Virus record (IMG/VR): IMGVR_UViG_3300042876_000208
Coordinates: 1-64,000 of that record
Length of the DNA: 64,000 nucleotides
Direction: 5' to 3' (one strand)
DNA from: a virus
Lineage: Duplodnaviria > Heunggongvirae > Uroviricota > Caudoviricetes
Under the pieces are notes generated by a model. It did no database searches. It was not told the origin of the DNA and saw only the letters and a list, made by a program, of their open reading frames with translations. A program made the position numbers and the translations under genes. Positions 7,669-30,558 of this stretch are shown piece by piece (positions within the stretch are counted from its first letter, which is position 1; every line of letters begins with the position of its first letter).

Positions 7669-7681
7669 ATAGAGCCTCCTT

Positions 7682-8101
7682 CTAAATTGAAATCTTTTTG
7701 TTCAGTAGAATTGAAAGAACAGCATTCTTGCGGCAAGACGGTGGAATAGTCTGGTCGGGTATTTTGAGCCAGCCCTCAAGACATTCCTTTCCAGCCAAGG
7801 GTGTATAGGCGGTGGACACCATATCTTCAATCTTGTGTTGATGACCACACACAAAGCACCCAGCACGAATTTGCTTGAAATCATCCTCAGTGATAAATTC
7901 CTTACCACACTTAGAGCAAAAGAATGTGATAGGATAATCTTCACCGGAATGTAATTCGCCACTCTCTGAGAGTGGTCGTGCCTCTGCCGCGCCGGGAATG
8001 AGAGTCTTTTCCTGAAACGTCCAGGTTAAGACACGCATCACCAAGCGAAAGCCCGAGATTACTGCACCACCACATTCACCTTCGTGGTAGAGTTGGCTCA
8101 T
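7682..8101 (-). CDS. zinc-ribbon protein
   Basis: CSKCGKEF ... CFVCGH pairs of CxxC. Confidence 0.4.
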   Translation of the reverse strand: MSQLYHEGECGGAVISGFRLVMRVLTWTFQEKTLIPGAAEARPLSESGELHSGEDYPITFFCSKCGKEFITEDDFKQIRAGCFVCGHQHKIEDMVSTAYTPLAGKECLEGWLKIPDQTIPPSCRKNAVLSILLNKKISI

Positions 8102-10687: not shown

Positions 10688-10937
10688 ATTTGGAAGAAAT
10701 ACGCACTTTGTCTACAATTAGACTATAGGCAGTGATAATCTCAAAGACATCCAAGATAGGAACATTTTTCAATACAAGAATGAGTATGCCATTTGCTTCC
10801 CTTGTATAGTTATCAGGATATTTCTTAACGAGGTCTATAATTAATCCCACACCTCGCTGCATAATCAATCTCGTAGAGATAGCCAGTGTCACCTCTTTTT
10901 TATCTCTGTAGATAGGTGAAAGAACTAAGTCAGACAT
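10620..10937 (-). CDS. hypothetical protein
   Basis: 105-aa ORF between the two ATP-grasp genes. Confidence 0.3.
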   Translation of the reverse strand: MSDLVLSPIYRDKKEVTLAISTRLIMQRGVGLIIDLVKKYPDNYTREANGILILVLKNVPILDVFEIITAYSLIVDKVRISSKFAENKSYQHLFPNEDLFLYGGN

Positions 10938-10947
10938 AAAGTATCAA

Positions 10948-11874
10948 TTATCCTCCAAAAGCTACCGACCACAGATATTTTGCGATACGGTAATGAATGT
11001 TCCAAGGGCCATCTTCGCCCAATGAGGCTTTGGCAAGGCGTTCATGCCGAAGTAGAGAACAAGCAGTGTTAATCTCACTCATAACAAACTTTCGGTGCGT
11101 AGTTTGGAAGATGTCGATGAAAGAGATTTTAGCGCCCACAAGTTGCTGAGCTTTAACCGCCAGGTTCAAGAGAATTTCCGGCGGTGTGGGCATGAACTGC
11201 ATGGTGTCGGATAAACACACAGACACTTTCCACTCATCGGGGTGGAACTCAGGTTTGTCCACAAAGCCATATGGAAGGGCCTCCCCATTGATAACCACGA
11301 TGCGGTACAGAGCATCATATTCAATGTATTCTTGCAGGACAAAGCGGTTGCCTAAACCATTGGCCAGGGTGGACATGGGAACAATTTCTTCTGTTCCGGT
11401 TTTCTTCCAACCACTTTCCACTTTGGTAAGCCGAAGGACACGAGCGCCCTGTTCCATGCTGGTGATGGGTTTGATAATGTAATTCCCATTTGGTACAACT
11501 GGAATATCATCAACCCGGACACTCCAAGTGCGTGGGTGTGCAATGGTTTCCTGCAATAAGAGAGAGCAAGCAAGCTTGTCGGACGTAAGCCGTAGAGCTG
11601 AAGGCTTGTTGACAATCTTAAATCCACGCCTCTCCATATCGAAGAGTGTTCCCATCCACCCGTTTTCAGACGGGTTTGCCGCACGAGCGTGTACCACAGT
11701 GTTCGCTGGGGTGAGTTCGGTATGGCGTTCAAAGAATTCCGACAACTCTGATACACGGATTACGTGTGTGTGAATGTCAGTCTTATGCTTCTTCCCGGCA
11801 ATCCACATGATAGACCGTGCAATTACGCGGCTGTAATCACCGCCAGTTTCGGTTCGTACAATAACAAAATTCAT
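10948..11874 (-). CDS. ATP-grasp family ligase (second copy)
   Basis: 308 aa; FVLQEYIEY and EINTA motifs typical of RimK-like ATP-grasp. Confidence 0.5.
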   Translation of the reverse strand: MNFVIVRTETGGDYSRVIARSIMWIAGKKHKTDIHTHVIRVSELSEFFERHTELTPANTVVHARAANPSENGWMGTLFDMERRGFKIVNKPSALRLTSDKLACSLLLQETIAHPRTWSVRVDDIPVVPNGNYIIKPITSMEQGARVLRLTKVESGWKKTGTEEIVPMSTLANGLGNRFVLQEYIEYDALYRIVVINGEALPYGFVDKPEFHPDEWKVSVCLSDTMQFMPTPPEILLNLAVKAQQLVGAKISFIDIFQTTHRKFVMSEINTACSLLRHERLAKASLGEDGPWNIHYRIAKYLWSVAFGG

Positions 11875-11883
11875 CGCTCCTCC

Positions 11884-13089
11884 TTAATGATACTGAAATT
11901 TTTTGATGGCACGTTCAATCTCATTGAAATTAGTACCCAGTCCCAAGGGGAATTGAATCTCCTTAGAATAGATACCAATTGGAATAACCGCGAACTTCTT
12001 TCGTTCTACCTCATCACGAACGGATTTTCTGCTACCAAGTCCACCGACAGCGTATTTCAAGAACAAGTCGATTTGCTTTTCTTCAAGACTCAAGAGAGGC
12101 TTGTTGAACAGAACAATGAATATAGCATCCATGTCTGCAACACTCAACCTCTCCCTCTCACGGAATTCAGCCACCCGAGTAATCTTTTGCCAAAGACCCT
12201 CCTGTGGACTAGTCCCCGAAGTATCCCCCGCGCCGTAACCAGTATTCCTCGTCGTCTGAGAGTTCACGGAGTGGACTTGTCCCTGACTGTATGACGTTTG
12301 ATACGTTTTTGCTGGTAAAGGGTTTTCGGGGCATTTCCCTACCTCCGTTAGAGTTAACCCATCGACTCTGTAGATGGTTTCCTTTTCGAGTTCTTTGACT
12401 TCCTTATCAAAGTCTATTTGAGGACTGCCGAGTAACTGGGCAATATTGGAAATGCTCAGTTGTTCATCGGATAGTGTGCCCTTTTCTGTATTGACGATAA
12501 ACCCATACGGAACTTTGTCCTTCGAGAGATGAACAATATGCAAATCGGCAGTACGTCCTCGACACACATAGAACTTGGACTCTCTGCGAACATAGATAAC
12601 CATTGCATACTTGCCCTTGCATCCGGCCATACAATTGTTGAAGGCGAGGACAAAATCCGGCTCGATTTTCAATTCCGCAGTGAGCATTTCAGCAAAGCGC
12701 TTGCTATCCGAGGGGCGGCTTTCTTCCGTTGTACTGGTTGTGGTGTTGGTATCCTTTAGCTCATCTTCAAACCAAAGAGTACCATTGTGAACGAGAACGA
12801 GTTCATCCGTCTGAAAGGGATGTACATTTTCCTCAGTTACCACAATATTCTTGCTTGCCCTGCGAACATGCGATACAATGGGATTTACCCCAAAGCCATA
12901 GTCGCTGATTAAACCACCAATGTCGCATAGTTCGCTGGCTGCGAATTTGGTTTTGAAGATACCTGACTTAGGTGAGAAAAACCCCCAACCATCCTTGTGC
13001 AGGTAGCGTGAATTCTTTGTTGCTGTTACAAGTAGTGCGGCTTTGTTAAACCGCTCAGACCGTGAGGCGATAAGTGTTATTTGGCACAT
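11884..13089 (-). CDS. class-II (Ntn) glutamine amidotransferase-like protein
   Basis: Begins Met-Cys (MCQITLIAS), the N-terminal nucleophile arrangement of GATase-II/Ntn hydrolases; 401 aa. Confidence 0.5.
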   Translation of the reverse strand: MCQITLIASRSERFNKAALLVTATKNSRYLHKDGWGFFSPKSGIFKTKFAASELCDIGGLISDYGFGVNPIVSHVRRASKNIVVTEENVHPFQTDELVLVHNGTLWFEDELKDTNTTTSTTEESRPSDSKRFAEMLTAELKIEPDFVLAFNNCMAGCKGKYAMVIYVRRESKFYVCRGRTADLHIVHLSKDKVPYGFIVNTEKGTLSDEQLSISNIAQLLGSPQIDFDKEVKELEKETIYRVDGLTLTEVGKCPENPLPAKTYQTSYSQGQVHSVNSQTTRNTGYGAGDTSGTSPQEGLWQKITRVAEFRERERLSVADMDAIFIVLFNKPLLSLEEKQIDLFLKYAVGGLGSRKSVRDEVERKKFAVIPIGIYSKEIQFPLGLGTNFNEIERAIKKFQYH

Positions 13090-13096
13090 ATTACTC

Positions 13097-14233
13097 CTAA
13101 CGATTGATTACGTGACTGAATTGGATATTGTGTACAGAGGCTTGGTGTGAGTCCAAGAAACCAGAATCTTTCAAATCTCTGGCATTTACCTTACGCCGGG
13201 GTTTATCATCCCCAGTATAGTAGAAATCTTCTTGGACATACTTATCCCAAAGGTGGGATTTTATCTCACCCTCTGGTAAGACAAATTTAGGCGCTGTACA
13301 TAAGAGTTCCCTTAGTAGGGTCTTGTACTTGGGCTGCATAGGATATGTATCAGAGAACTCATCCAAGAGTGCAAAGAGAACCTCAAGCAACTGACAATCA
13401 TCGTTGCTCTTGGTCACAGGTGCAAATGGCAGCTCTTCCAAGCGTCTCAATGGCACTTTGGTCAGCATTTCGGCTGTGCTTTGACACAGACGCATGTTAG
13501 CCAAGAACAACTGAGAGTTGACGGTGAAATTGAAATGTCTGAACTCTAATGTGCCGTGTAGTAAGATGCTCAGCAGGTTCACCCCAAAATAGCGCGATGG
13601 GTGATACCGCTTCGGTTCACGCTGACTTACACCATAAGCACGCCAGAATTCATCCACGGTTTCGGATGTTATCAGTTGCTCGTAAGAGAGTACCGGGCGA
13701 TAGTTTCCATCTTCACAACGAACAATCGGGGGCGCGGTGTGTGGTCTGCAATAAATAGCATTGTTGCTATCGCCTCTGAATGTATAGCCCATAGTCCCGA
13801 GCTGATACATGAGGCTTTCAAACTTAGCAGAGAATGTTACCGCCGATAGCAGGCTACCAAGTGAATGGGGGAAACCTACGTGGAAGTGAATGGCATTGCG
13901 AGTACCTTTCTCCAATTCACCTTCACGGTCTAGTTCACCAAGCAAGAGCGGAAAGATACGTTCAGCATCCCTAAAGTACATGGGTACTGAAATCAATTCA
14001 ACTCCCGTGGTGACTTGAGTTAAACTACGACCACTTTTAGTCAACAGATTGAAGGGGTCGATGAAATAGAGTTTGTCTGTAAGCCGCTTCAAAAAGGTTT
14101 CGGAGGATGCATCCCTATCCTTTTTAAACCAATCAAGTATCCCAAGAGTTCCTGCTCTCTCAACGAAGCGTGTGGGGATAACATTTGTGGTTTCTATTTC
14201 AGCGGCTACAGTATCAAGAATTAAACCTTGCAT
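13097..14233 (-). CDS. carboxylate-amine ligase (GCS2/COG2170 family amidoligase)
   Basis: 378 aa; AIHFHVGFP motif comparable to YbdK-type HVHVG; Glu/Arg-rich catalytic core. Confidence 0.45.
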   Translation of the reverse strand: MQGLILDTVAAEIETTNVIPTRFVERAGTLGILDWFKKDRDASSETFLKRLTDKLYFIDPFNLLTKSGRSLTQVTTGVELISVPMYFRDAERIFPLLLGELDREGELEKGTRNAIHFHVGFPHSLGSLLSAVTFSAKFESLMYQLGTMGYTFRGDSNNAIYCRPHTAPPIVRCEDGNYRPVLSYEQLITSETVDEFWRAYGVSQREPKRYHPSRYFGVNLLSILLHGTLEFRHFNFTVNSQLFLANMRLCQSTAEMLTKVPLRRLEELPFAPVTKSNDDCQLLEVLFALLDEFSDTYPMQPKYKTLLRELLCTAPKFVLPEGEIKSHLWDKYVQEDFYYTGDDKPRRKVNARDLKDSGFLDSHQASVHNIQFSHVINR

Positions 14234-14241
14234 AGTTTTTC

Positions 14242-14685
14242 CTAGAACTGGTAAACGTCATTGACAGAGTATACAAATCCAAGTTGAGTTTTATTCTCAC
14301 GGAAATTCTGGCAAAGACGCCAGATGGTTTCAATGAGGTTATTCTTAACCTGCTCTGCATTAGGAACTGAGTAGTGGCACATAATGTTATCCATGTTTCT
14401 ATCCAGTCCTTGAATATAGACCACGGTTCTATCCCCGAGCGCTGGGGTATTATTCACCTTGACCGTGCCTCCGGTGTCCTCGCAAGAGAACGTGAGTTCA
14501 TTAACACGGAGAGCGTCGTGTTGAGATAACACCCTGAAATAAATCACATCACGGTCAACACACATCATAAACGTAATGAGTGCTTCCGTCTCAGGGACAA
14601 TCGGTGGCTTTCCTACCGGGTATCGGAACATATTACCTCCTACGAGAACAAAGTAGTGAACTTCTTGATTGAATAAGCATCCCAC
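14242..14685 (-). CDS. hypothetical protein (true start probably internal Met)
   Basis: 147-aa ORF overlapping next gene by 46 nt; internal MFRYPVGK start likely. Confidence 0.35.
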   Translation of the reverse strand: MGCLFNQEVHYFVLVGGNMFRYPVGKPPIVPETEALITFMMCVDRDVIYFRVLSQHDALRVNELTFSCEDTGGTVKVNNTPALGDRTVVYIQGLDRNMDNIMCHYSVPNAEQVKNNLIETIWRLCQNFRENKTQLGFVYSVNDVYQF

Positions 14686-15245
14686 ATACGTTCAGGATGC
14701 CATTGAACTGCAAAGATATTTGCATCGACCGAGATGGCTTCAACAAGGCCTGACTCTTCAGAGTTAGCCTCAACCCTAACACCGTTACCTAAACGAGCAA
14801 TTCCCTGGTGGTGGAAAGAGTTTGTACGAAACACGCTCCTATCCCGTGTAGTAACACGGTGAACCAAATCAGTCTCGTGCTGAGAGTAGGGATGGTCAAC
14901 AAGGTCTTGACGCAGAGTTCCACCAAAGAACACATTCAACGCCTGCAACCCTCGACAAATCCCAAAGATTGGAAGCTTTGCTTCAACGAACAAAGGTAAA
15001 ACGTGGTCGTCAAAGTATTCCAGGTACGTGTTGGGTTTAGATGTTCGATACTCAGGCCATTGACCATACTTACCGGGATAAATATCTGCACCACCGGGAA
15101 GAACAATTCCGTACAAGAACTTGAGGGGTTCTTCCAAGGACGGGGTTACAATTACGGGTGTTCCAACCTGTTCAATCCAATACAGGTAGTTTGTGTGAAC
15201 ACCAAACACACCATCTGTTTCCGAGCCAGGAATTCCAATTCGCAT
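14640..15245 (-). CDS. class-I glutamine amidotransferase / peptidase C26 (second copy)
   Basis: GICRGLQ nucleophile motif, HHQ, WHPE; 201 aa; first gene of operon. Confidence 0.7.
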   Translation of the reverse strand: MRIGIPGSETDGVFGVHTNYLYWIEQVGTPVIVTPSLEEPLKFLYGIVLPGGADIYPGKYGQWPEYRTSKPNTYLEYFDDHVLPLFVEAKLPIFGICRGLQALNVFFGGTLRQDLVDHPYSQHETDLVHRVTTRDRSVFRTNSFHHQGIARLGNGVRVEANSEESGLVEAISVDANIFAVQWHPERMWDAYSIKKFTTLFS

Positions 15246-15521
15246 CGTTAGCCTCCTTTAGCTAATAATACAGCACCGAGTATGCACATCAAAATCCACA
15301 GTGCAATCAAACCTCTTGATAACATATTGCCTCCTTAAATTCTCTTATCATGCTTGTTGGAGATATAGGTATCCAGCATAGTTGCGAATGTGTTGGCTAG
15401 AAAAATAATGCCCAGGCCAATCAAAATAGTTCCGAGGTCAGAAACATTATAATTTCCAGAATATATCTTATCCAGAACAAATTCAATTCTTTCAGTAATC
15501 CTTCTGTTCATATTACCTCCT

Positions 15522-15896: not shown

Positions 15897-16112
15897 TTTA
15901 CTCTCCTTGGTTCATAAGCAAATACGCAAGTATAAGTAACAGAATGGTTATGGGGTTCATAGTCTTCCCAATATAAGTGCAAGAGTTAATAGAAGTAATA
16001 ATCCAAGTAAGAATGTGACAATTGCCACAGTCTTACCAAATAGAATTACAAGCAGTATAAAAACTAGTACACATGCTGCTTCTATTATTAGACTTGCAAG
16101 CATAGTTACTCC

Positions 16113-16463
16113 TTAAATCTCGATGTTACAAATCTCAGACAAAGCAGCCCTTGCTTGTGTCATGAGTTCTTGCTGTTCATTATCTTTGATAGTTGATTTG
16201 ATAGACTGTAGTGCCATCTTGAACTGTTCTATAAACTTGTTGACAAATTCCATGTTGGCCTTTCCTATGGAGCGTATTTCAAAGGTGGTTAGGACTGTAC
16301 TACTACCATCCATTACACTAAGCAGAGGTAACGCATGAAAAGCTTGTTTGACCTTTACAATTTTAAGTTCGGAGTCTTTTGACTTATCCACTGAAACAAT
16401 GATACAAATAGATAGTTCACCGCTCTTTGTAATATGCAACTGTGGCTTTTCAAAAGTTCTCAT
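16113..16463 (-). CDS. hypothetical protein
   Basis: 116-aa ORF. Confidence 0.4.
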   Translation of the reverse strand: MRTFEKPQLHITKSGELSICIIVSVDKSKDSELKIVKVKQAFHALPLLSVMDGSSTVLTTFEIRSIGKANMEFVNKFIEQFKMALQSIKSTIKDNEQQELMTQARAALSEICNIEI

Positions 16464-16678
16464 CTCTTATCTCCTGCTTGATAGATATACAATCCGATTA
16501 CGGCAGGCAGGAAAAAGAAATCTACAAAGAATATTGTAAGGAGTACTCCAATGTTTCCTAAGCCATAGTCAGACTTGAAAAGTTCTTTGACCAATTTAGT
16601 ATCTGTAAGTTGGCCAACAAATATGCCAACAAACAGCATAATCCAGATGTATGCTAAGATTGCTAATGTATCACTCAT
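16460..16678 (-). CDS. small membrane protein
   Basis: 72 aa, two hydrophobic helices. Confidence 0.4.
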   Translation of the reverse strand: MSDTLAILAYIWIMLFVGIFVGQLTDTKLVKELFKSDYGLGNIGVLLTIFFVDFFFLPAVIGLYIYQAGDKR

Positions 16679-16681
16679 AGC

Positions 16682-17074
16682 TTATTCTTCACTTTCAGAT
16701 TCTTTTGTAGGAACTATAACATGCACACTGCAAGGAACAATTGCGGCTGACACAAGTGTAGATGAATTTACACATTTAAGAGCATCTCCAGTATTGTGTG
16801 CAAATACAATACGCAAACCCCCAGAACCATCGCTGTGTTTTGTTTCAACAATGAATGGAATTCCAGCATCGAGTTCATATGAGTCTGGATAAATTGTACT
16901 GTTATCATACAAAAAGGGTTTATTTTTTACACTAATAACAGCATGAAGGTGCGGCGGTTTGTTAAACCTATCCAGAGGATTACCCAGATAGACTTCAGAA
17001 ACACTATCGTCTATTTTGGTAGGATGGGGATTACTGTGATAAGCTTTTGCAGTATCTTTATTATACTTAGTCAT
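16682..17074 (-). CDS. hypothetical protein
   Basis: 130-aa ORF. Confidence 0.4.
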   Translation of the reverse strand: MTKYNKDTAKAYHSNPHPTKIDDSVSEVYLGNPLDRFNKPPHLHAVISVKNKPFLYDNSTIYPDSYELDAGIPFIVETKHSDGSGGLRIVFAHNTGDALKCVNSSTLVSAAIVPCSVHVIVPTKESESEE

Positions 17075-17075
17075 A

Positions 17076-17300
17076 TTATTTCTCCGGATTTTCTATGGGG
17101 CCAGAGCGCATGAGATTTATCTTGATAACTTTGGAGAATCTTTTATCTCTGCCAAGTTCAAGGAATAACTGGGCGAGTGCTTCATCTCGATTATATCTCC
17201 TATACTTAATAGTTTTAGTTATCTTGGAATGATAACTATCTGTGTAAGAGAGTTTAATCTTTATTTCAAGAACATCTTCAAACCAATCGTTCATAGTCAT
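17076..17300 (-). CDS. hypothetical protein
   Basis: 74-aa ORF abutting previous. Confidence 0.35.
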   Translation of the reverse strand: MTMNDWFEDVLEIKIKLSYTDSYHSKITKTIKYRRYNRDEALAQLFLELGRDKRFSKVIKINLMRSGPIENPEK

Positions 17301-17317
17301 CTCCTTTTTTGAATAAG

Positions 17318-17341
17318 ACCCGGGCTAGGAATCGAACCTAG
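17318..17341 (-). other. tRNA 3'-half-like element (T-arm plus acceptor strand only)
   Basis: Minus strand reads CTAGG-TTCGATT-CCTAG followed by CCCGGGT; I could not find a matching 5' acceptor strand or D-arm within 120 nt. Confidence 0.3.
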
Positions 17342-17499
17342 ACCTTCTCCTGCTATAACTTCATTACGGACATTGCCGTAATACATCATTCGCATCAGAG
17401 CTGTACTACTTATACTACTCAGGGTTTAGAACACTCTATTTTTACTTTCGCGGGTCGCTAAATCCGCTGTGGAAGAATGTTCAAGAGAACCACCAGAGT

Positions 17500-17571
17500 G
17501 CCCTCGCAGGGAATCGAACCCTGATTGCCAATTTAGAAGATTGGAGCTTCTATCCATTGAGCTACGAGGGC
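17500..17571 (-). tRNA. tRNA-Arg (anticodon UCU)
   Basis: Hand-folded: acceptor GCCCTCG/CGAGGGC, D-arm, anticodon stem CCAAT/ATTGG with loop CTTCTAA (UCU), T-arm CAGGG-TTCGATT-CCCTG; 72 nt, no encoded CCA. Confidence 0.7.
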
Positions 17572-17699
17572 GTTTTGTTACGGAAGTAAATATCTCAAAA
17601 ATAAATATAGTTCTTTCCACCAAGTCACCGGTGTAAATTGAAACGATGCAGGAAGTCTTGGGTCACAACCAAAATAAATGCGCCGTTTTTTACCCATAG

Positions 17700-18038
17700 T
17701 TAACTCCTTTCTATAAACTCTATTACTTCTAATAGTCTATCCAATATTTCCTTCTTTAATTCTTCATGACCTTCAAAACTCTCAATACACCCAAAGAACC
17801 CAAGGTTCACAGAGTAGATGCCATCAACAAGCTTTCCGTCAGCATCCTCTATGTGAGAATACATCCAATTCCTGCTTCTTACGGTCATAGGTGCATCAAA
17901 GGAGTCAATGGACTTGATATTACCTTCCTTGTCCATAACCATTGTTTCACCGTTTGGATTGAGAGTACCAAATACAACTCCCAAATAGATGTAAAAGCTA
18001 CCATCGTTATGCTTTACAGGTTGACCAATGTTTAACAT
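17700..18038 (-). CDS. hypothetical protein
   Basis: 112-aa ORF. Confidence 0.45.
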   Translation of the reverse strand: MLNIGQPVKHNDGSFYIYLGVVFGTLNPNGETMVMDKEGNIKSIDSFDAPMTVRSRNWMYSHIEDADGKLVDGIYSVNLGFFGCIESFEGHEELKKEILDRLLEVIEFIERS

Positions 18039-18040
18039 AG

Positions 18041-18334
18041 TTATCTCCCGTTCTCTGCTTCACAAAGGTGTGCTAATGTTTTACCCACAGAAATCCAGCC
18101 CTCAAACTCGAAGGTAAAGACATAGATAACAAAGTCTTTGATAATGTTCTCACCACAGAATGGACAACGATTAGTTGCTTCAATACTTTTTTCTGCGATT
18201 ACTCGTTCAAGGTCAATGGGCGCTCCACAATGCTCACACTTGGAAAATACTTCCTTGAGGTCTGCCATCATAACATATTGGTCAAAAGAATTACTCAATC
18301 TGAGACGATTAATAATAGTTTCTTTAATGTTCAT
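18041..18334 (-). CDS. zinc-ribbon protein
   Basis: CEHCGAP ... CPFCGENI. Confidence 0.45.
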   Translation of the reverse strand: MNIKETIINRLRLSNSFDQYVMMADLKEVFSKCEHCGAPIDLERVIAEKSIEATNRCPFCGENIIKDFVIYVFTFEFEGWISVGKTLAHLCEAENGR

Positions 18335-18536
18335 TGACTACCTCCTCATCCAAAACCACAACCATAGAATATTTCATAATCAGGTTCAAGAACCAATTGG
18401 TATTAATGAACATTCCGCAGGACAAGGTATTAAATCCCTTTAGCAGGTTCAGCACTTGCTTGCCGGATAGATTGTTCAGCATATTCAAGAGCAATGTGGT
18501 TATAAATAACAGATAAAATGTGTACATGGTAATCTC

Positions 18537-19109
18537 CTAAAAGAATGGAAAGATAGTCTTTAGATGTTCAGTATATTCCACATCAAAACCATCACAGCAA
18601 CTGACACGAACACCATGTGTTTCCACGTAGTAATTCAAATCCACTGAGATGGTCTTAAATTTATCAGAGAATTTGTGGCCTTTGAGATAATTAATACACT
18701 CTTTCCAGCCTTTATTATCGGGAAAGGATAGAGCAAATTCTTTCAGTTCCTTGATTGCTGCATCTAAGTCTTCCGGCTCAAAGCCTAAACTAACTGAGAT
18801 GTTCTCATATCCTTCAAGACCCCACCGCAGGTCAAAGATGCAATATTCAAGGTCATCACGTTTTACCTTTAACGTTCTTTTCAGACTTTTGCGTACTTGC
18901 TTGACAAGAAAATGATTTAAAAGAACTTCATTCTCAGGTTTTATTTGTAAATTGACCTCGGAGGCCTTATTCACTTGCTCTTTGGTCAATACCAACATAG
19001 TCCCTGAGTGACGTGGACTTTCGATTACGTAGCTATCTTCATCCAGTTTAAACATCAAAGGACGTGCTTTGTGGTTTACAAGAACGGCTTCTGTTTCCAT
19101 ATCAATCAT
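18537..19109 (-). CDS. hypothetical protein
   Basis: 190-aa ORF. Confidence 0.45.
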   Translation of the reverse strand: MIDMETEAVLVNHKARPLMFKLDEDSYVIESPRHSGTMLVLTKEQVNKASEVNLQIKPENEVLLNHFLVKQVRKSLKRTLKVKRDDLEYCIFDLRWGLEGYENISVSLGFEPEDLDAAIKELKEFALSFPDNKGWKECINYLKGHKFSDKFKTISVDLNYYVETHGVRVSCCDGFDVEYTEHLKTIFPFF

Positions 19110-19473
19110 CCTCTTCCATAGTTATTTGCACGATATGGGGTATCCATTTCCAACTGCGGAAATCGAATTGCTTGTCTCCGCGAGTGGCCCAAAGTTCCCA
19201 AGCCTCTGAACCAAGGTCAATGTTTATCTTCCCTTCGCCATAGCGTTTACTGTCAAATACATCGATGGTTAGGGAATTAGACAACTGCATCATATTGGTA
19301 TAGGTATTCAGAGTAACCATATCCACACCAAATTCTGAAATGAACTTGACTACCTTTTCATGCCTGGTTCTTACTTGTTGGCGTAAAGACTCTGGATATT
19401 GTTCCTCCTCAATCTTGAGAAAATAATCCAGCAACTTTCCGGCATGTGTACCTTTCAGAGTTTCAATATCCAT
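19102..19473 (-). CDS. hypothetical protein
   Basis: 123-aa ORF overlapping neighbour by 8 nt. Confidence 0.45.
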   Translation of the reverse strand: MDIETLKGTHAGKLLDYFLKIEEEQYPESLRQQVRTRHEKVVKFISEFGVDMVTLNTYTNMMQLSNSLTIDVFDSKRYGEGKINIDLGSEAWELWATRGDKQFDFRSWKWIPHIVQITMEEDD

Positions 19474-19480
19474 AACAACC

Positions 19481-19714
19481 TCACTTTACTGAATAAGTAG
19501 GAACAGACTCACAATGGTCATAAATGTCTGTAGGTGAGTGAAACATTTGTGCTACCCAGCCACGCTTGTAGCATACTTCACTCACAGTACAACCATGCCA
19601 TCCACCTAAGATGTTCATATGGCAGTCACGCATTTCAACGCGCTCTGTGGACATCATACCCATTCCCAGAGCAATGAGTAAAGCCACGATTATGATTAGA
19701 ACCAGGTTTTGCAT
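19481..19714 (-). CDS. small secreted/membrane protein
   Basis: 77 aa, N-terminal hydrophobic helix, four Cys. Confidence 0.4.
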   Translation of the reverse strand: MQNLVLIIIVALLIALGMGMMSTERVEMRDCHMNILGGWHGCTVSEVCYKRGWVAQMFHSPTDIYDHCESVPTYSVK

Positions 19715-19819
19715 ATTATCCTCCTTGAATTTAGTATGGTCTTACGAAAGAGCTAGTGCAGCGATGAACCACACTAGCCCTGGGCCTTACATTTGTTGCA
19801 CTGACACTACTTGCTTATA

Positions 19820-20431
19820 TTATTCCATACCATCCTGGTAGATGTCGTATGGATTTTCACCGAACACGTCGCTGGGCTTGACGGTGACAGGCATAACAAA
19901 GATAGAGATGAGGTCACCGCTGTTCAACATGACCGACACCGCGCTTTTGCCAGCCTCAACAAAGAGGGTATAGGCACGTGTGATGGCCTGCTTGAGCAAT
20001 GCGGGAACGCTGCTTGCCGGGACAACTTTCCATCCGTCACTTTCCAGGTATTGAACCAAGGCTGCCATATCTTTGTAGTTGGCAATCGTGCCACGCCCGA
20101 AGGTAGCTTTCAACCACCCGCTGATGGGGGTTTCAAACATAACTTCACCACCGGACTGAATGGCATTACGCATCATGGTGAAGCCAACACCACCGCCGGG
20201 TGTTCCCCATGCGAACAGGTAATTCTCACCATTGGTCAGGATGTAAGTACCCGTTCCACCCGTTACGGCCTGATTGAGCCAATACAGGGTAGTGCCGAGG
20301 TGAGCCGCGTAAACCTGGCCATCCGGAGGCAGGGGCGGGTTGATGGTCGCCGCAGATGGGTCGGGGGCGCAGGCGGCCAAAACGAGGGTCATGATTGTTA
20401 CAAACAACAGAGCGATACGAGCAAGTTTCAT
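19820..20431 (-). CDS. lipoprotein (signal peptidase II substrate), GC-rich island
   Basis: MKLARIALLFVTIMTLVLAAC lipobox; Gly/Thr-rich mature part; local GC visibly higher than flanks. Confidence 0.55.
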   Translation of the reverse strand: MKLARIALLFVTIMTLVLAACAPDPSAATINPPLPPDGQVYAAHLGTTLYWLNQAVTGGTGTYILTNGENYLFAWGTPGGGVGFTMMRNAIQSGGEVMFETPISGWLKATFGRGTIANYKDMAALVQYLESDGWKVVPASSVPALLKQAITRAYTLFVEAGKSAVSVMLNSGDLISIFVMPVTVKPSDVFGENPYDIYQDGME

Positions 20432-20705
20432 TTTACATTCTCCTTTCGAGAGACGAACTAAGATTAGTTATCTAGCCTGAGCTAGTTTAACTTACTAAAA
20501 TACCAATTGTCCGCTGCAAATCTACCCGTGATGTTGTTAACTTGGCCTTCTCTGAAATCTGCAATTGTGGACATTTCAACACCAAGTCCCGTTCTAGGAA
20601 TAGTTGAGAAACCTTTTGGAAAGCGGTCAATGGCCTGCATGGAAATAGTCTGTTGTCTTGGAAACCACTTGATTATATATACTTTCAGAATAGTAATTTC
20701 CATAG

Positions 20706-21026
20706 TTACCTCAACTTACTAAACTGTTCCCAAACTTTTCTACTAATACGCACCCAACCGTCTGCTGGATTTAAGCGATTGCGTTTCCAGTTTATAATAT
20801 ATAAATCGCCAGTATTCACGTTCAAATAACATTCCGGCTCTACCAATTGAGTATCCGGCGACTGGTCTACAATATAGTCGATATTAACTCCTTCACCATA
20901 GTTACCATTTACATCAAGAACAGTGTTATCATCAAACTCAATGGTTACACCATAAGGTTCAGTATCATTTCCTACCAGAACCTCTTTGAACTCTTTGATA
21001 CGTTTTCCAGTAAGATTGAGTGTCAT
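20706..21026 (-). CDS. hypothetical protein
   Basis: 106-aa ORF. Confidence 0.4.
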   Translation of the reverse strand: MTLNLTGKRIKEFKEVLVGNDTEPYGVTIEFDDNTVLDVNGNYGEGVNIDYIVDQSPDTQLVEPECYLNVNTGDLYIINWKRNRLNPADGWVRISRKVWEQFSKLR

Positions 21027-21283
21027 TTTAATACCTTCTTTCCAACGAACTCATGGTAGTACCACATCGCAACATGGTTCAGAAAATACATCATTACAAA
21101 TAATTGAAGATATTGCATTTCCTCTGCGGTTAAGATGCGATACATGAACTTGTTTGCAAAGGTGAATAAAGCCAGATATGAAATAGCTTTAGACAATCCA
21201 GCTATGCTTGTTGAAGCAATAAACATTGGCCAAATTTTGTGCTTATTCAAGTCACCAATCCAGATATTTATGGCTTTTATCAT
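21023..21283 (-). CDS. small membrane protein
   Basis: 86 aa with hydrophobic helices. Confidence 0.4.
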   Translation of the reverse strand: MIKAINIWIGDLNKHKIWPMFIASTSIAGLSKAISYLALFTFANKFMYRILTAEEMQYLQLFVMMYFLNHVAMWYYHEFVGKKVLK

Positions 21284-22042
21284 TTAGGCCTCCTTGTGGA
21301 ACAGGAAAAGCTTACCATCATTGCTCTCGAAATGCTTCTTTATTTCAGGATTGCTCATAGCATGCCAACCGGAGTCCACGTTATAAAACACGCAAATAAT
21401 ATCATCGTCTGCGGTATTGATTACATTCTTGAAAAATGCTTCCATACCATCTGGGCGGGTCATCGGATTATAGGCATAAATAAGATTGTAGCTCTTGAAA
21501 TCCCAGGTTGTAATATCACCCTGTTTCACGTTAATTGTTCTTCTTAATGCTTTAGCCGGAGAAACTAGGAACGGATTATATTCCACACCCTCCCAGATAT
21601 TAGCGGTAGTCTTGAACACACAATCAAAGAATGTCTGAGCAAGTAAAACCTTATCGCCCATGCCTGAGCCTGCATCTACAAAACGAATGGTATCAGTTTT
21701 AGTTCTAAGCAGTTTAGTCGCTTTGTGCATAGTAAAAATAAACTCATCTGACCAAAGAGGAATGTAAGGATAGGCATCAAACCCACTGGGCGGGTTTTCA
21801 GCGTCTTTACCAAATTTTTTGCACTCAAAAATAGACTCACTGAGATTAAGCCGTTTCTCAAGTACATACATAACTCTTGGTGGAAGATAGTTATCTGGGT
21901 TATCATCCAAGTATTTCAGGACACCTTGGCAGATAAGCGGGGTTGGAATAATATTGAGAATAGGTGAGTCCGATTCTGAACTCACTAGCAACTTGAGTGC
22001 CTCAGAAGCGGTTTCTGGAAAATCAAATATTACTTGTTTCAT
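21284..22042 (-). CDS. putative class-I SAM-dependent methyltransferase
   Basis: FVDAGSGMGDKVL resembles MTase motif I; start moved to internal Met (perfect AAGGAG RBS 7 nt upstream), which avoids overlap with the tRNA-like element. Confidence 0.4.
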   Translation of the reverse strand: MKQVIFDFPETASEALKLLVSSESDSPILNIIPTPLICQGVLKYLDDNPDNYLPPRVMYVLEKRLNLSESIFECKKFGKDAENPPSGFDAYPYIPLWSDEFIFTMHKATKLLRTKTDTIRFVDAGSGMGDKVLLAQTFFDCVFKTTANIWEGVEYNPFLVSPAKALRRTINVKQGDITTWDFKSYNLIYAYNPMTRPDGMEAFFKNVINTADDDIICVFYNVDSGWHAMSNPEIKKHFESNDGKLFLFHKEA

Positions 22043-22074
22043 TTCAGTCTCCTTTTTGAATTGTATGAAACAGA

Positions 22075-22140
22075 AGCACCGATGGGATTTGAACCCATGC
22101 ACAGCGTATCCGCTTGCTCTACCAACTGAGCTACGGTGCT
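22075..22140 (-). other. tRNA-like element with truncated anticodon arm (66 nt)
   Basis: Perfect acceptor AGCACCG/CGGTGCT, canonical U8 and D-arm GCTCAGTTGGTAGAGC, canonical T-arm ATGGG-TTCAAAT-CCCAT, but only 16 nt (AGCG-GATA-CGCT-GTGC) where the anticodon arm plus variable loop (~22 nt) should be. Confidence 0.45.
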
Positions 22141-22156
22141 TGCCTACTACATGGAG

Positions 22157-22474
22157 CTAATCGTGAATTTTCTTTAAAGATGTGGCCAAAACAACGTAAT
22201 CTTGACTGATTGAACCTGGTTCACGACAGGTGACCACTAGACTTGGTGTATTTCCCGAAATGGCATCTGCACCACAAGTGCTGTACTTTGTTAAGGTTTC
22301 CACTTTGCCTTCTATGGTAACTTCATATACCCTTGTAGTGGAAAATGCTTCCTGTTTAGGCGCACCAGGTAAGTTGGTGTTCCCCTCAGCAGGGCCACAA
22401 GCCGCTACAATCAATGCCAAGACAAACAACATGGCCAGTAATACATACCAGGGGTTAATCCTTGCGTTTTTCAT
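22157..22474 (-). CDS. lipoprotein
   Basis: Signal peptide ending LIVAAC lipobox. Confidence 0.5.
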   Translation of the reverse strand: MKNARINPWYVLLAMLFVLALIVAACGPAEGNTNLPGAPKQEAFSTTRVYEVTIEGKVETLTKYSTCGADAISGNTPSLVVTCREPGSISQDYVVLATSLKKIHD

Positions 22475-22685
22475 ATTTCCTCACAGCTCGCTTGCGTTTG
22501 AGCCAACGTGGTAACCAGCCACGCATGGTTGAAAGGATTTCCTGAGCATCCAGGCCAATCTTTGGGGCAACGAACTTCACCGCAATCCAGAGCAATTTGA
22601 CTGAGAGCCAAACCACAAGTAGGATTACCAGGGCCATGCCACCAAACTGTACAATATTGTACAAGAACTTTATGCCGATACCCAC
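22455..22685 (-). CDS. small membrane protein
   Basis: 76 aa, two TM helices, basic C-terminus. Confidence 0.4.
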   Translation of the reverse strand: MGIGIKFLYNIVQFGGMALVILLVVWLSVKLLWIAVKFVAPKIGLDAQEILSTMRGWLPRWLKRKRAVRKYEKRKD

Positions 22686-22694
22686 GATTACCTC

Positions 22695-23615
22695 CTAGGG
22701 CTGGGGAACGGGCACGATGTTAGTGCCTGTGGTATTAAAGAACTGGGTCAAGTCGGTTCCTTCGGGGATGAAGTAAACCGTTCCTGTACCGAACATACGC
22801 TGGATGAGTTCCAGGCGCTTGAGTTCAAATGCCTGCGGGTTATCGGTGTAGACCTGCTGGGCGGCGGCAACTTTCTTGCCTTCACGCTGGGCGATTTCAA
22901 CATCAATAGCGGTTTGAGCTTTCTGCACGTCGAGCTGCTTTTCCAAGACGGTCTTGCTCTTTTCGGCCTGCAAGATGTCATTGGCAGCCTGTTGATTAAT
23001 CAACGACTGCCTTTGAACCTCAACTTCGGTATTGACACGCAGCAAGGCTTTGTCGTTCAAAGCTTTCATGTATTCAGCAGACGGGGCAACGTTTTCAATG
23101 GTCACATTGATGATTTCTGCAGAATATTTTTCAGAGTCTTGCTCAAGCTGGTCTTTGATGTTATTGGCCAGACCATTGCGGTCATCAAGCAACTTGTCCA
23201 GGGTGAATGAACGAACGCCATTCTTCATGCCCTCACGAGCGGTAGCGGCCACCGTGTTCACAAAGTTACCATCATCAGTCAATGTAGACCAATTCGTCAT
23301 CAAGTTCATGACGGAGTCCTTGTCGGACTTGCGGCGAGCCTGGATGGTCACTTTCAAGCCAATCGCCTGATTATCCGAGGTAAGCACCTCGGGGTCTTCA
23401 ACGCTGAACGTAAGTGCATCCACGTTGATGACCTTGATTTCAGCGAGAGCGCCACCGCTGTACATGCCTGGGCCAACCACGTTCACAATCTTGTTGGACT
23501 CCATTTGCACGGCCACCTGGTTCGGGTTAACGTCCGCGTTCCAGTAACAACCGCTGGTGATGAGGGTGAACAAAACGAGCAATACTGTCAAAAGCGATAA
23601 CTTACTGAATTTCAT
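22695..23615 (-). CDS. SPFH/band-7 (stomatin/prohibitin/HflKC-like) lipoprotein
   Basis: Lipobox LITSGC; central SPFH-like core followed by long Ala/Gln/Glu-rich coiled coil (QRQSLINQQAANDILQAEKSKTVLEKQLDVQKAQTAIDVEIAQREGKK); GC-rich. Confidence 0.6.
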   Translation of the reverse strand: MKFSKLSLLTVLLVLFTLITSGCYWNADVNPNQVAVQMESNKIVNVVGPGMYSGGALAEIKVINVDALTFSVEDPEVLTSDNQAIGLKVTIQARRKSDKDSVMNLMTNWSTLTDDGNFVNTVAATAREGMKNGVRSFTLDKLLDDRNGLANNIKDQLEQDSEKYSAEIINVTIENVAPSAEYMKALNDKALLRVNTEVEVQRQSLINQQAANDILQAEKSKTVLEKQLDVQKAQTAIDVEIAQREGKKVAAAQQVYTDNPQAFELKRLELIQRMFGTGTVYFIPEGTDLTQFFNTTGTNIVPVPQP

Positions 23616-23626
23616 TTAGAACCTCC

Positions 23627-23866
23627 TTAATGAACACTTGGCTGAATGGAATTTAGGACTATGGCTAACCAGCCACCGATTGCCACAGCCAGACAAATAA
23701 ACCCTATTGTAATTACCAGGGCTTTTATCTTCTTATTAACAACCATGCGAACGCTCCGAGTAGTACGATTGAAGGACAAAATGAGGAAGCAGCCAAGAGC
23801 CTTTGCCACGCTGGATAATCCATAGTCAATGCAATTCTGCCCAAAAGAACTGCACATACTCCACAA
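23627..23866 (-). CDS. small membrane protein
   Basis: 79 aa, hydrophobic C-terminal helices. Confidence 0.4.
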   Translation of the reverse strand: MWSMCSSFGQNCIDYGLSSVAKALGCFLILSFNRTTRSVRMVVNKKIKALVITIGFICLAVAIGGWLAIVLNSIQPSVH

Positions 23867-23887
23867 ATGGCATAGACTATTGGGTGG

Positions 23888-24058
23888 TTCATTTAGTGCT
23901 CCTTCTTGTTTTTCTTGCTTTTGGATGCTTCAGCATCGTAATCCTCTAAGCTGGGTTTGGTAGTAGATTTACCACCAATTTTCTTGCCCTGCTCAAGAGC
24001 GGCCAATTCCTCAGCCGTGATGCCAATTACCTGCTTGTAGCGGTCGTTGCGAGTCTTG
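23888..24058 (-). CDS. small basic protein (about 56 aa)
   Basis: Hand-translated MHKTRNDRYKQVIGITAEELAALEQGKKIGGKSTT..., below ORF-track length cut-off. Confidence 0.3.
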
Positions 24059-27897: not shown

Positions 27898-28314
27898 ATG
27901 GCTACTTACTTTTGCAAGCGTAATGAAAAGACCGCACTTGCCCAAAGCGTGTTCGCCCCTATGTACACGCTACTCGATACCCAATCGCCAACCGCTCAAA
28001 ACTACGCCAACGCGGTCGAAACCAAGACTATGTTGGAAACCGGTCTTTTGCCCAAGTACGGTGGCAAGGATAGCGACGTGTACACGTTTGGCATTGACGA
28101 AACGGTTGTATACAAAGCTACCCGCCGCGAAATTATCGACTACGCTGACAAGGTTATCGCCACCAAAGTACACTTTGATGCACTCAATACCGCATGGTTA
28201 GCTATCCGCCCCGTTGACAAAGACGGTAAGGACAACCCCGCCTGGAAAGTGGCCGATAAGCCTAAGATTGAAAAGGGCACGGGCACGCGGGTAAAGGTCG
28301 AAAAGGTCGCCTAG
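27898..28314 (+). CDS. hypothetical protein (138 aa), first gene of the only plus-strand cassette
   Basis: GGAAAGG RBS 8 nt upstream of ATG; Lys-rich C-terminus. Confidence 0.5.
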   Translation: MATYFCKRNEKTALAQSVFAPMYTLLDTQSPTAQNYANAVETKTMLETGLLPKYGGKDSDVYTFGIDETVVYKATRREIIDYADKVIATKVHFDALNTAWLAIRPVDKDGKDNPAWKVADKPKIEKGTGTRVKVEKVA

Positions 28315-28962: not shown

Positions 28963-29760
28963 TTAATTGTTAGGATGTGATTTTAAATATTCATTCCAAA
29001 GTATTGAAACCTTTTGTTCTAAAGTAATCTCATATGGTATTGGACTGGGGATTTGCTCCACTGTGCCAACTAGCTTATTAAATTCTGCATCTGTACCTAG
29101 AAAGAAATTGAAATCTATTTCTTTCTTATCTAGGAAACCTGTGGGGTAACCGGGAATGTCTCTAGGTTTACCCCTATATGACCACTGGAGGAATTTTAAG
29201 GTACTTATATTGGGTACGCTGGGTACTTGTGGCAGCTTAGTTCCTGCCATGATTGCTAAGTAATCCTGCTCAAAGGTTTTACTATAATCCACATTAGGTA
29301 AAGAAAACCAAAAGATGTGAGCATCACACCAAGCTTTACTGGCTTTGGTTTGACAAGTTGTTTTCCAATAATCCAACCCCGTATAGATTATAGGGTATCT
29401 TCCAATCGTGTTTTTAATTCTTTCTGAGAGTTCGTCTATCTGCCCGAAAACCAAGGCTCTATTCGCTAGAGTATCCTCAAGGTCTATTACAGGAGGTAAT
29501 TCACCATTATAATCTTTTCCACCAATAGCTTTTAAGAAAGCATCTGTGCGGGTTTTATTGATTAACTCAGTGGATTGTCTCCAAAAGTAATAAGCCCCTC
29601 TGGGAACTTTACCTTTTGAATTATTCCAGTTGGTAGCAAATGCTGAATCCTGAGTATACTCATAAGCCTTTATAAATACGAAATCCAGTTTAGTCTTAGC
29701 TAAATCCCAATCAATTTTTACACCATCATATTTAGATATGTCTATTCCGAATCTGAGCAT
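28963..29760 (-). CDS. endolysin, GH25 muramidase family
   Basis: N-terminus FGIDISKYDGVKIDWDLAK...FVFIKAYE matches the GH25 signature (GIDVSxxQG.IDW..V); 265 aa; adjacent holin genes. Confidence 0.7.
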   Translation of the reverse strand: MLRFGIDISKYDGVKIDWDLAKTKLDFVFIKAYEYTQDSAFATNWNNSKGKVPRGAYYFWRQSTELINKTRTDAFLKAIGGKDYNGELPPVIDLEDTLANRALVFGQIDELSERIKNTIGRYPIIYTGLDYWKTTCQTKASKAWCDAHIFWFSLPNVDYSKTFEQDYLAIMAGTKLPQVPSVPNISTLKFLQWSYRGKPRDIPGYPTGFLDKKEIDFNFFLGTDAEFNKLVGTVEQIPSPIPYEITLEQKVSILWNEYLKSHPNN

Positions 29761-30254
29761 TTTTCCTCCTGCATTTTTTCAAGGGCTGCATTTAGTTTAC
29801 CATCTGGTTTCCAAGCGGGTGTTATGTTGAGTTCCTTCAATTGTTTCAATACTTCATTGAATCCATGAAATAACTCAATGGTTAACTTCTCTCCCCTTAT
29901 TCTTCTTTTTATTTCGTCGTCTAGTCTTGATTCAGTAGCTTGTAATCTTTCGTCTAGAGTTGCGTATTTCTTAGATAATGCTTCTAGCATTTCCTTATAC
30001 TCCGAGACTAGTGCATTAGCGGATTCGACAATATTCTGAGCAACCTCAGATTCTATTTTTCTAGCACTAGCCTTAGTTGCTTCTGCATCAGCATCAATCT
30101 TTTTATTCTCTTTATCAAATTTATTTTTTTCTAAGATTCTGCCCAATAGATATATTATTGCTGGGAGTAATACCGACAGCATTACACCAATTTCTCCATA
30201 GGTTGGCATTGGTATATCTATAAACAGCGTTGTTAGTTTATTTAATAGTAACAT
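29742..30254 (-). CDS. membrane-anchored coiled-coil protein (spanin-like or second holin/antiholin)
   Basis: N-terminal TM helix then long coiled coil; located between holin and endolysin. Confidence 0.4.
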   Translation of the reverse strand: MLLLNKLTTLFIDIPMPTYGEIGVMLSVLLPAIIYLLGRILEKNKFDKENKKIDADAEATKASARKIESEVAQNIVESANALVSEYKEMLEALSKKYATLDERLQATESRLDDEIKRRIRGEKLTIELFHGFNEVLKQLKELNITPAWKPDGKLNAALEKMQEEKCSDSE

Positions 30255-30558
30255 GGGGCATCCATCCGTTCCAAGTGATTCTAAAGTGTGAGAGCATTAG
30301 AAATAAATGATAAATACTTTCTGCCATAAATAAAGCGGTCAATCCGTATCTAACTACAATACCACGAGCATCCATAGGAAAGTCGTTAATGTATAGGGCA
30401 AAATAAGCATATATTACCGTAAAGTAGATTCTAACAAGTAAATCTATTACTCTCGAAAAATCCCTTCTAGCTACTATTCTCATAGCGAATCCTACACTAG
30501 AGATGAAAGCCAGAAAGGTTATAAGCCATTCTTGTATTTCATATAAGTTTCTTGACAT
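30238..30558 (-). CDS. holin (multi-TM small membrane protein)
   Basis: 106 aa, three predicted TM helices, charged C-terminus, lysis-cassette position. Confidence 0.5.
   Translation of the reverse strand: MSRNLYEIQEWLITFLAFISSVGFAMRIVARRDFSRVIDLLVRIYFTVIYAYFALYINDFPMDARGIVVRYGLTALFMAESIYHLFLMLSHFRITWNGWMPHVTIK

Follow-up and report, generated by a model that had tools for sequence, protein, structure and literature searches.

An SPFH lipoprotein gene and a small membrane-protein gene as a two-gene cassette of uncultivated tailed phages, with a possible role as a membrane scaffold

SPFH proteins form cages that fence off pieces of membrane, and cage formation by full-length members is established for HflK/C, QmcA, stomatin, prohibitin, erlin, and flotillin. 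The subject of the present study is a two-gene cassette on the minus strand of a 64-kb stretch of DNA from an uncultivated tailed phage (positions 1 to 64,000 of IMG/VR record IMGVR_UViG_3300042876_000208; hereafter, the window), in which a gene for an SPFH/Band-7 lipoprotein of 306 amino acids (aa) is directly followed by a gene for a 76-aa membrane protein; this pair is the core of our findings. Among described systems, the bacterial SPFH-NfeD operons (QmcA-YbbJ, YqiK-YqiJ, PH1511-PH1510, and FloT-YuaF) similarly couple an SPFH gene to a gene for a small membrane protein, and the predicted architecture of the window SPFH protein matches that of QmcA in the QmcA-YbbJ cage (8z5g). The cassette differs from these operons in that its partner protein has no OB-fold, its anchor is a predicted lipid and not a transmembrane segment, and its SPFH body is predicted to lie outside the cytoplasm. 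This last feature is also found in HflK/HflC-FtsH, an extracytoplasmic SPFH cage on the cytoplasmic membrane that ranked high among the structural matches (9cz2, 7vhq, and 7wi3). In contrast to that system, the cassette has one SPFH gene and not two paralogues, a lipobox in place of a type II transmembrane anchor, and no known link to FtsH.

Related SPFH or Band 7 genes are also carried by phages, including Vi01_108c of Salmonella phage Vi01 and gp200 of phage Sajous1 (PMC10892097), and no function is known for any of them. The T4-like phages 44RR, Aeh1, and RB43 have Pfam matches to SPFH/Band 7 that are not annotated as lipoproteins (PMC1524935), and the reason for the presence of an SPFH-like lipoprotein in the N4-like phage GIB1 was called unclear in 2026 (PMC13239085). 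The window protein belongs, as a distant member, to PHROG 200, which comprises the SPFH lipoproteins of Vi01-like phages, and like other proteins of this type it is encoded by a phage and combines an SPFH domain with a lipobox at the N-terminus. Vi01_108c (264 aa, lipobox LLSG-C, PHROG 200 at E=1e-58) was located by a lipobox scan, and the hidden Markov model (HMM) of the window family found nothing in phage Vi01. The two proteins have no BLAST-level similarity (E=0.31), the window protein being approximately 40 aa longer, and their small membrane-protein genes are also arranged differently: in Vi01 a 69-aa two-helix membrane gene (Vi01_109c, phrog_11680) overlaps the SPFH gene upstream, whereas the window partner lies downstream and has one hydrophobic block and a basic tail. 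In the corresponding segment of Vi01 (L018 24021-25335; record positions 74021-75335), Vi01_109c is preceded by a gene for a protein that appeared LysM-like by eye, and all of these genes are annotated as uncharacterized. What is new in the present locus is a divergent clade of phage SPFH proteins with a clearer operon structure; the kind itself is already known, and its function is uncharacterized.

The SPFH lipoprotein and its small partner

The two genes of the cassette are as follows.

22695..23615, minus strand: SPFH/Band-7 lipoprotein, 306 aa (assigned by Pfam, PHROG, AlphaFold2, and Foldseek)
22455..22685, minus strand: partner, 76 aa, GTG start, 9 nucleotides (nt) after the SPFH stop codon

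The 306-aa product had originally been predicted to be an SPFH protein, and this assignment was upheld by a match to Pfam Band_7 (PF01145) over residues 29-203 (80.4 bits against a gathering cut-off of 23.6, E=2.2e-22), with which the predicted fold agreed. It also matched PHROG 200, 'lipoprotein', at E=1.5e-21 over profile positions 81-349 of 379. The protein is laid out as a signal peptide with the lipobox ITSG-C23, the SPFH domain at approximately residues 29-203, a helix at 180-258, a second helix at 260-275, and a C-terminal tail of low confidence. Its AlphaFold2 model had a predicted local distance difference test (pLDDT) score of 86, and the best Foldseek matches of this model were stomatin, HflK/C, prohibitin, erlin, flotillin, and QmcA, over approximately 290 columns at E values of 6.5e-15 to 1e-10. 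Considering this model, the product is a predicted full-length protein of the cage type, with the SPFH domain, a helix of approximately 80 residues, the second helix, and the C-terminal tail all present. Its gene has a strong Shine-Dalgarno sequence, AAGGAGG, 7 nt before the ATG.

More than 200 homologues of approximately 300 aa were found at approximately 47-74% identity, together with three more at approximately 40% in IMG/VR. The lipobox Cys was aligned in 118 of the 120 homologues listed, typically as L-[ST]-G-C-Y, and the other two were N-terminally truncated gene calls. Cys23 is also one of 27 invariant columns in an alignment of 30 sequences, in which TFSVEDPEV and LLDDRNGL are strongly conserved. 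Because the lipobox is conserved, the SPFH protein appears to be anchored by a lipid on the outer face of the membrane, which would replace the usual N-terminal transmembrane helix or hairpin.

The family HMM detected a single SPFH open reading frame (ORF) in the window. Membership of HflK/HflC, which are encoded by two paralogous genes and each have an N-terminal transmembrane anchor, was rejected because of this single ORF and its lipobox anchor. A functional relationship was considered separately, in which an SPFH ring facing the periplasm would capture or displace FtsH-HflK/C of the host (or another membrane protease) and thereby stabilize phage or host proteins. HflK/C, which is among the best structural matches, also faces the extracytoplasmic side, and HflK/C-FtsH is known to control CII of phage lambda. 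However, stomatin, prohibitin, erlin, and flotillin match equally well, the nearest solved protein by sequence in the Protein Data Bank (PDB) is stomatin at only E=2e-7, and there is a single SPFH gene with no HflK/HflC pair and no protease link seen. An HflK/C-like SPFH protein is encoded by a prophage of Pasteurella multocida, in which it is reported as a virulence factor borne by outer membrane vesicles (PMC9872710), and this precedent also speaks for such mimicry; on balance, we regard it as highly improbable for the window protein.

The wider occurrence of the cassette was inspected in 13 lineages, namely, the window, L001, L003, L004/5, L006/7, L008, L009, L010, L011, L019, L020, L021, and L022. 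All 13 were phage-like, and the identity of their SPFH proteins to that of the window was approximately 39-74%. The carriers are uncultivated phages, with contigs mostly of approximately 50-125 kb, and the SPFH genes lie in runs of small genes with DNA ligase, RtcB, PARP, methylases, dUTPase, sliding clamp, Ro60/TROVE, amidoligase/GATase clusters, or GH25 endolysins. A search of 185,579 species-representative genomes of bacteria and archaea, made with three peptide patterns and thus not exhaustive, gave no relative. On this evidence, the SPFH lipoprotein family appears to be phage-specific in the data searched.

In every one of these 13 lineages, a co-oriented partner gene for 56-98 aa lies directly after the SPFH stop codon, with a gap of -4 to +32 nt, a spacing that would be close enough for translational coupling. 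Most partners have an N-terminal hydrophobic block of 34-46 aa, a short Trp-containing patch, and a basic tail, and the net charge of the tail was between +2 and +8 in 10 of 12. In the window partner, the hydrophobic block occupies residues 5-41 (37 aa) and is followed by GWLPRWLKRKRAVRKYEKRKD; the basic tail is 35 aa long with a net charge of +8, and a ribosome-binding site, AGGAGG, lies 5 nt before the GTG. In L006, the ATG of the partner overlaps the SPFH stop codon by 4 nt, and the C-terminal end of the protein is WLRSKLPRRRRKRKSKSQ. An HMM built from eight copies of the partner also detected the copies of L006 (E=1.5e-7) and L020 (E=4.7e-5), on which it had not been trained. The partner had no Pfam, PHROG, NCBIfam, or PADLOC match, and a word-based search for homologues of the 76-aa protein found only itself.

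The small membrane protein expected to pair with the SPFH protein is accordingly present, but the original prediction of an NfeD-like protein did not hold: apart from the Band_7 match of the SPFH protein, none of the ten proteins encoded in the region matched NfeD (PF01957) or any other Pfam family at E<=0.1, and a length of 56-98 aa leaves no room for an OB-fold. The partner is a positional analogue of NfeD and not a member of that family.

A possible scaffold on the outer side of the cytoplasmic membrane

We consider the chance to be about even (a probability of approximately 0.5) that the SPFH protein, together with its partner, serves the phage as a scaffold on the outer side of the cytoplasmic membrane. 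The SPFH protein would be exported by Sec, lipidated, and assembled as a ring- or dome-shaped oligomer on the cytoplasmic membrane of the host, at its extracytoplasmic side. In the same patch of membrane, the partner would be embedded so that, following the positive-inside rule, its basic tail points into the cytoplasm, and the pair would mark or enclose a membrane microdomain in the infected cell. The most likely, albeit weakly supported, purpose is the protection or re-organization of the envelope during infection, such as shielding an entry or receptor site from a superinfecting phage or keeping the membrane energized until lysis. It is a rather doubtful further possibility that the cassette represents a split SPFH system, in which the lipid anchor and the membrane-embedded segment come from two polypeptides and the cage encloses a patch of membrane or a host protein in order to control DNA entry, membrane integrity, or lysis. 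If the split arrangement is correct, it is a virus-specific use of the SPFH cage principle that is common to many uncultivated phages and, more distantly, to Vi01-, T4-, and N4-like phages.

Several points weigh against a scaffold of this kind. The partners of L019, L021, and L022 (three of the 13) were assigned by position and features only and not by the HMM; the mean column identity of the partner alignment was 33%, and small hydrophobic proteins align easily by chance. If the lipoprotein is sorted to the outer membrane, direct contact with a partner in the inner membrane is unlikely. No link of the cassette to any particular phenotype was found. The 105-aa lipoprotein encoded next to the partner has no solid homologue beside other SPFH genes, its homology being marginal at best, and the deviating guanine-plus-cytosine (GC) content of the region, which is described below, could partly reflect codon or amino acid bias, since GC is higher throughout the non-structural half of the window than in the structural half. 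Regarding the question of sorting, there is a hint, based on weak evidence, of a Gram-positive-type host, in which lipoprotein and partner would both be located in a single membrane; this hint comes from the lack of an o-spanin candidate, the two-domain GH25 endolysin of the window, and the GH25-SH3 endolysin of L006. Scans of bacterial and archaeal genome contigs with the SPFH profile and the endolysin yielded no confirmed relative that would identify the host.

The lysis genes of the window bear on a further explanation, and two of them are listed here.

28963-29760, minus strand: GH25 endolysin, two-domain, with an extra C-terminal part of approximately 120 aa
30238-30558, minus strand: holin-type gene, 106 aa, three hydrophobic helices

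The partner may be read as a holin- or antiholin-like protein of class II (small, with two hydrophobic helices and a basic C-terminus) that is confined or released by the SPFH ring in order to set or delay lysis. Its size, hydrophobic block, and charged tail are typical of holins and fit class II, the SPFH gene lies beside or within a few kb of a GH25 endolysin gene in L006, L021, and the window, and SPFH proteins are known to regulate channels and membrane proteases elsewhere. We nevertheless regard a role in lysis timing as quite unlikely, with the window already having the holin-type gene listed above as well as a gene, immediately upstream of that for the endolysin, whose 170-aa product combines a transmembrane segment at the N-terminus with a coiled coil. 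The partner had no match to a holin family, and it is not beside an endolysin gene in most lineages: the cassette is 5.3 kb from the endolysin gene in the window and stands among DNA-metabolism genes in L003, L004, L008, L019, L020, and L022.

The lipoproteins of the window were also examined as spanin candidates and rejected, as their genes are 5-9 kb from the GH25 endolysin gene, no lipobox ORF lies at the lysis genes, and none of the three has a C-terminal hydrophobic segment. Around the lysis region as a whole (28963-30558, minus strand), no o-spanin-type lipoprotein ORF was found nearby.

With respect to the significance of the putative scaffold, the locus adds a large and well-conserved phage-only clade, a predicted extracytoplasmic and lipid-anchored topology, and an invariant two-gene unit for cloning and testing. 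The obligate partner that is now evident represents an experimental handle on why phages carry SPFH lipoproteins. If the pair controls superinfection, membrane integrity, or lysis timing, the result would probably extend to well-studied phages of Salmonella, Escherichia, and Erwinia that have SPFH lipoproteins.

Other lipoproteins and the composition of the region

The cassette lies among further genes for exported or hydrophobic proteins, and the features of this region are as follows.

23725-23892, minus strand: two-helix protein, 55 aa, directly upstream of the SPFH gene; ATG preceded by AAGGAG; hydrophobic segments at residues 3-24 and 32-53
23627-23746, minus strand: one-helix protein, 39 aa, overlapping the 55-aa gene; internal ATG with GGAG upstream; one hydrophobic segment
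22157..22474, minus strand: lipoprotein, 105 aa, lipobox IVAA-C26, two Cys in the mature part; overlaps the partner gene by 20 nt
22074..22140, minus strand: tRNA-like element, 67 nt, between the 105-aa gene and the next gene; Rfam tRNA score of 53.3 bits against a gathering cut-off of 29
19820..20431, minus strand: lipoprotein, 203 aa, lipobox VLAA-C21; the most GC-rich gene of the window
19481..19714, minus strand: 77-aa protein, adjoining the 203-aa gene; N-terminal hydrophobic anchor or signal at residues 1-26 and a Cys-rich C-terminal part (5 Cys)

A PROSITE-style (PS51257-style) lipobox scan of all six frames of the window, with the Cys required within the first 35 residues, returned five loci, two of which lay inside real genes in another frame. 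The remaining three, all on the minus strand, were exactly the lipobox-bearing proteins of the original prediction (19820..20431, 22157..22474, and 22695..23615). Their lipobox Cys residues are at positions 21 (203-aa protein), 26 (105-aa protein), and 23 (SPFH protein), and all three pass the pattern of a positively charged n-region, a hydrophobic h-region, and a lipobox. The chance that three randomly placed genes would all fall within 3.8 kb of 64 kb is estimated at approximately 0.01. Hydrophobic or exported products were encoded by six of the ten ORFs in 19400-23900 as compared with 18 of 97 in the window (hypergeometric P=0.0024).

The accompanying claim that this region is interleaved with two-helix membrane proteins of 76-86 aa stood only in part. 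The 76-aa partner has a single hydrophobic block, the 86-aa product (21023-21283) is weakly hydrophobic and fell below the threshold used, and the 79-aa ORF with a TTG start (23627-23866) was probably mis-called and is better read as the overlapping 55-aa and 39-aa genes, the model of the latter being inferred. In L001, the closest relative of the window, three tiny hydrophobic ORFs are located at the place that matches the 55-aa gene.

The 105-aa lipoprotein may tentatively be regarded as part of the module. Small lipoproteins with two Cys adjoin the SPFH gene in L003, L006, and L021, and the order in L021, SPFH-partner-lipoprotein, is that of the window. The small lipoproteins of L003 and L006 were similar at E=3e-6 and those of the window and L021 at E=2e-4, the latter mostly via the signal peptide; no similarity was found between the window protein and that of L003.

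Regarding the 203-aa lipoprotein, which had appeared to be an orphan in an earlier word-indexed search, an exhaustive phmmer search of 1.84 billion proteins returned 147 cluster representatives (threshold E<=1e-3), almost all of them 154-232 aa long, and a lipobox was detected by a regular expression in 91 of the 147. Three other members that were located, in L006, L023, and L024, are in phage-like contexts, and L006 also carries the SPFH cassette. One contig of this family, of 56.6 kb, has a terminase and a 7-deazaguanine pathway; in L024, the genes at 15954-18887 encode QueC, PTPS, a radical-SAM protein, and GTP cyclohydrolase I, a 7-deazaguanine DNA-modification pathway found along with the 203-aa homologue. 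The family is absent from Pfam and PHROGs, and the AlphaFold2 model of the 203-aa protein (pLDDT 81) had no significant fold match in the PDB (best E=0.036) or BFVD (best E=0.075). The 203-aa lipoprotein belongs to an undescribed family of exported phage proteins, and one of considerable size. A plus-strand ORF at 19811-20461 (216 aa) was rejected as a shadow of this minus-strand gene, the homologues supporting the minus frame; this antisense ORF is longer than the real gene, as is typical of GC-rich coding, and could mislead gene callers. The adjoining 77-aa Cys-rich protein had no family match.

The presence of three lipoprotein genes within 3.8 kb of a phage accessory region raises the possibility that each product acts alone at the cell surface, in the manner of T5 Llp, Cor, or TP-J34 Ltp, by masking a receptor or blocking DNA entry, with the SPFH fold simply forming the body of one blocker. 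Known exclusion factors of Gram-negative and Gram-positive phages are lipoproteins, the SPFH lipoprotein gene of Vi01 is three genes from one annotated as 'superinfection exclusion', and the 203-aa family is phage-borne and exported. As lipoproteins that phages make in infected or lysogenic cells, T5 Llp, Cor of phi80/N15, and TP-J34 Ltp suggest a possible role for the 203-aa and 105-aa proteins; however, this likeness is one of class only and a matter of background knowledge, with no similarity in sequence, profile, or fold to the window lipoproteins. No island protein resembled a known exclusion protein by sequence or profile, and PADLOC gave no match to a defense model for the ten proteins. 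Moreover, the coupling of SPFH and partner genes in all 13 lineages and the kept cage architecture speak against the SPFH protein acting alone. Approximately 70 of approximately 95 window ORFs were scanned without an integrase being detected, which, together with the lack of the SPFH family in the bacterial genomes searched, points to a lytic life style, in which exclusion would matter for only a short time. Independent exclusion by the three proteins is therefore considered unlikely. The 203-aa, 105-aa, 77-aa Cys-rich, and tiny hydrophobic proteins are envelope-directed accessory products of the region that do not demonstrably form one machine.

The same region had been described as a single GC-rich island, a description that was not borne out. 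The mean GC content of the window is 0.394, with GC at third codon positions (GC3) of approximately 0.25 in the structural half and a GC-richer non-structural half. The 203-aa lipoprotein gene, at 0.541, is the maximum of all 612-bp windows (z=3.0), and the SPFH gene, at 0.502 (z=2.2-2.3, top ~1% of windows), has the highest GC3 (0.638) of approximately 95 ORFs. The partner gene has a value of 0.47, and values of 0.35-0.40 are found for the four genes that separate the peaks (20482-22102). There are thus two separate GC peaks and not one island, with further GC-rich patches at 4.1-15.2 kb, 27.9-28.3 kb, and 51.2-52.4 kb. The claim that the lipoprotein and SPFH genes are GC-richer than their surroundings was correct for the 203-aa and SPFH genes but not for the 105-aa gene, which is only at 0.44; the composition is not uniform.

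In eight other lineages, the GC content of the SPFH gene was within 0.04 of the rest of its locus, whereas in the window it is 0.11 above the mean. With their high GC and GC3, the SPFH, partner, and 203-aa genes would fit a fairly recent acquisition from phages of approximately 50% GC, the first two as a pair and the third in a separate transfer, a reading made from composition only. L006 is an SPFH-bearing phage of approximately 50% GC with a relative of the 203-aa lipoprotein.

Recent acquisition also admits the view that these genes are passengers with no coordinated role, gathered between the lysis and DNA-metabolism modules at a place permissive for insertion. This view is consistent with the two GC peaks being separated by low-GC genes and the tRNA-like element, with a gene content very unlike that of even L001, and with the 105-aa lipoprotein lacking a firm homologue beside other SPFH genes. 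It is considered very unlikely, as the SPFH and partner genes have been kept together over deep divergence with many invariant residues and both have strong ribosome-binding sites. Furthermore, contigs of approximately 93.5 kb carry the same genome, and positions 16820-23431 (6.6 kb) were 100% identical to the window in three independent samples.

The tRNA-like element has normal acceptor, D, and T arms, an anticodon arm of 4 bp with a GAUA tetraloop, and a cloverleaf fold with z=-3.2. It is not a true tRNA, as it has no 7-nt anticodon loop and cannot decode, and ARAGORN made no call. In L001, a normal tRNA-Arg(TCT) occupies the syntenic place. Possible readings of the element are a decayed tRNA, a processing signal, and a decoy, and it is probably not part of the membrane module. 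The next gene (21284-22042, minus strand) can be read as a longer ORF whose first 60 nt belong to the element; its start is probably an internal Met that gives a product of 252 aa, a length also called in all three public contigs of the genome (JGI and Logan). This 252-aa product, encoded between the two GC peaks, contains VDAGSGMGD, which by eye resembles motif I of S-adenosylmethionine-dependent methyltransferases, and had no Pfam match.

Genome setting and further observations

All long ORFs of the window are on the minus strand. Other landmarks are as follows.

57409-58962, minus strand: large terminase
55827-57404, minus strand: portal
38400-43715, minus strand: tape measure, 1771 aa
17498-17571, minus strand: tRNA-Arg(TCT)

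Together with genes for tail and fibre proteins, which are also present, these identify the window as part of a tailed phage with a long tape measure. The tRNA-Arg(TCT) is common to three SPFH-bearing lineages, being found also at 11483-11556 in L001 and 1370-1444 in L008. Neither the island nor the SPFH protein had a match among 50,697 deposited phage records in a DNA search or in protein searches at E<=1e-5 and E<=1. NCBIfam gave the island proteins no score near its cut-offs, and scans of 19-25 kb for promoters and terminators did not rise above shuffled expectation.

The only match of the window to a deposited phage, Leptolyngbya phage Lbo-JY46, was a weak one (28% identity) from the ORF at 51234-52445 (minus strand), which encodes 403 aa at a GC content of 0.49 inside the low-GC structural module and weakly matches a PHROG 'lipase'. 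Among the few convincing plus-strand ORFs is one of 138 aa at 27898-28314, just downstream of the endolysin region, with a GC content of 0.513, a GC3 of 0.619 that is second only to that of the SPFH gene, and no Pfam match. The GC-richer cluster at 4100-15250 (minus strand) encodes two class-I glutamine amidotransferase/peptidase C26 proteins, an amidoligase, a GATase_4-like protein, and a RuvB-like AAA protein, together with weak ATP-grasp and COOH-NH2-ligase-like matches, and may represent a pathway for the modification of a peptide or small molecule. Clusters resembling it are located downstream of the SPFH gene in L001 and L004.

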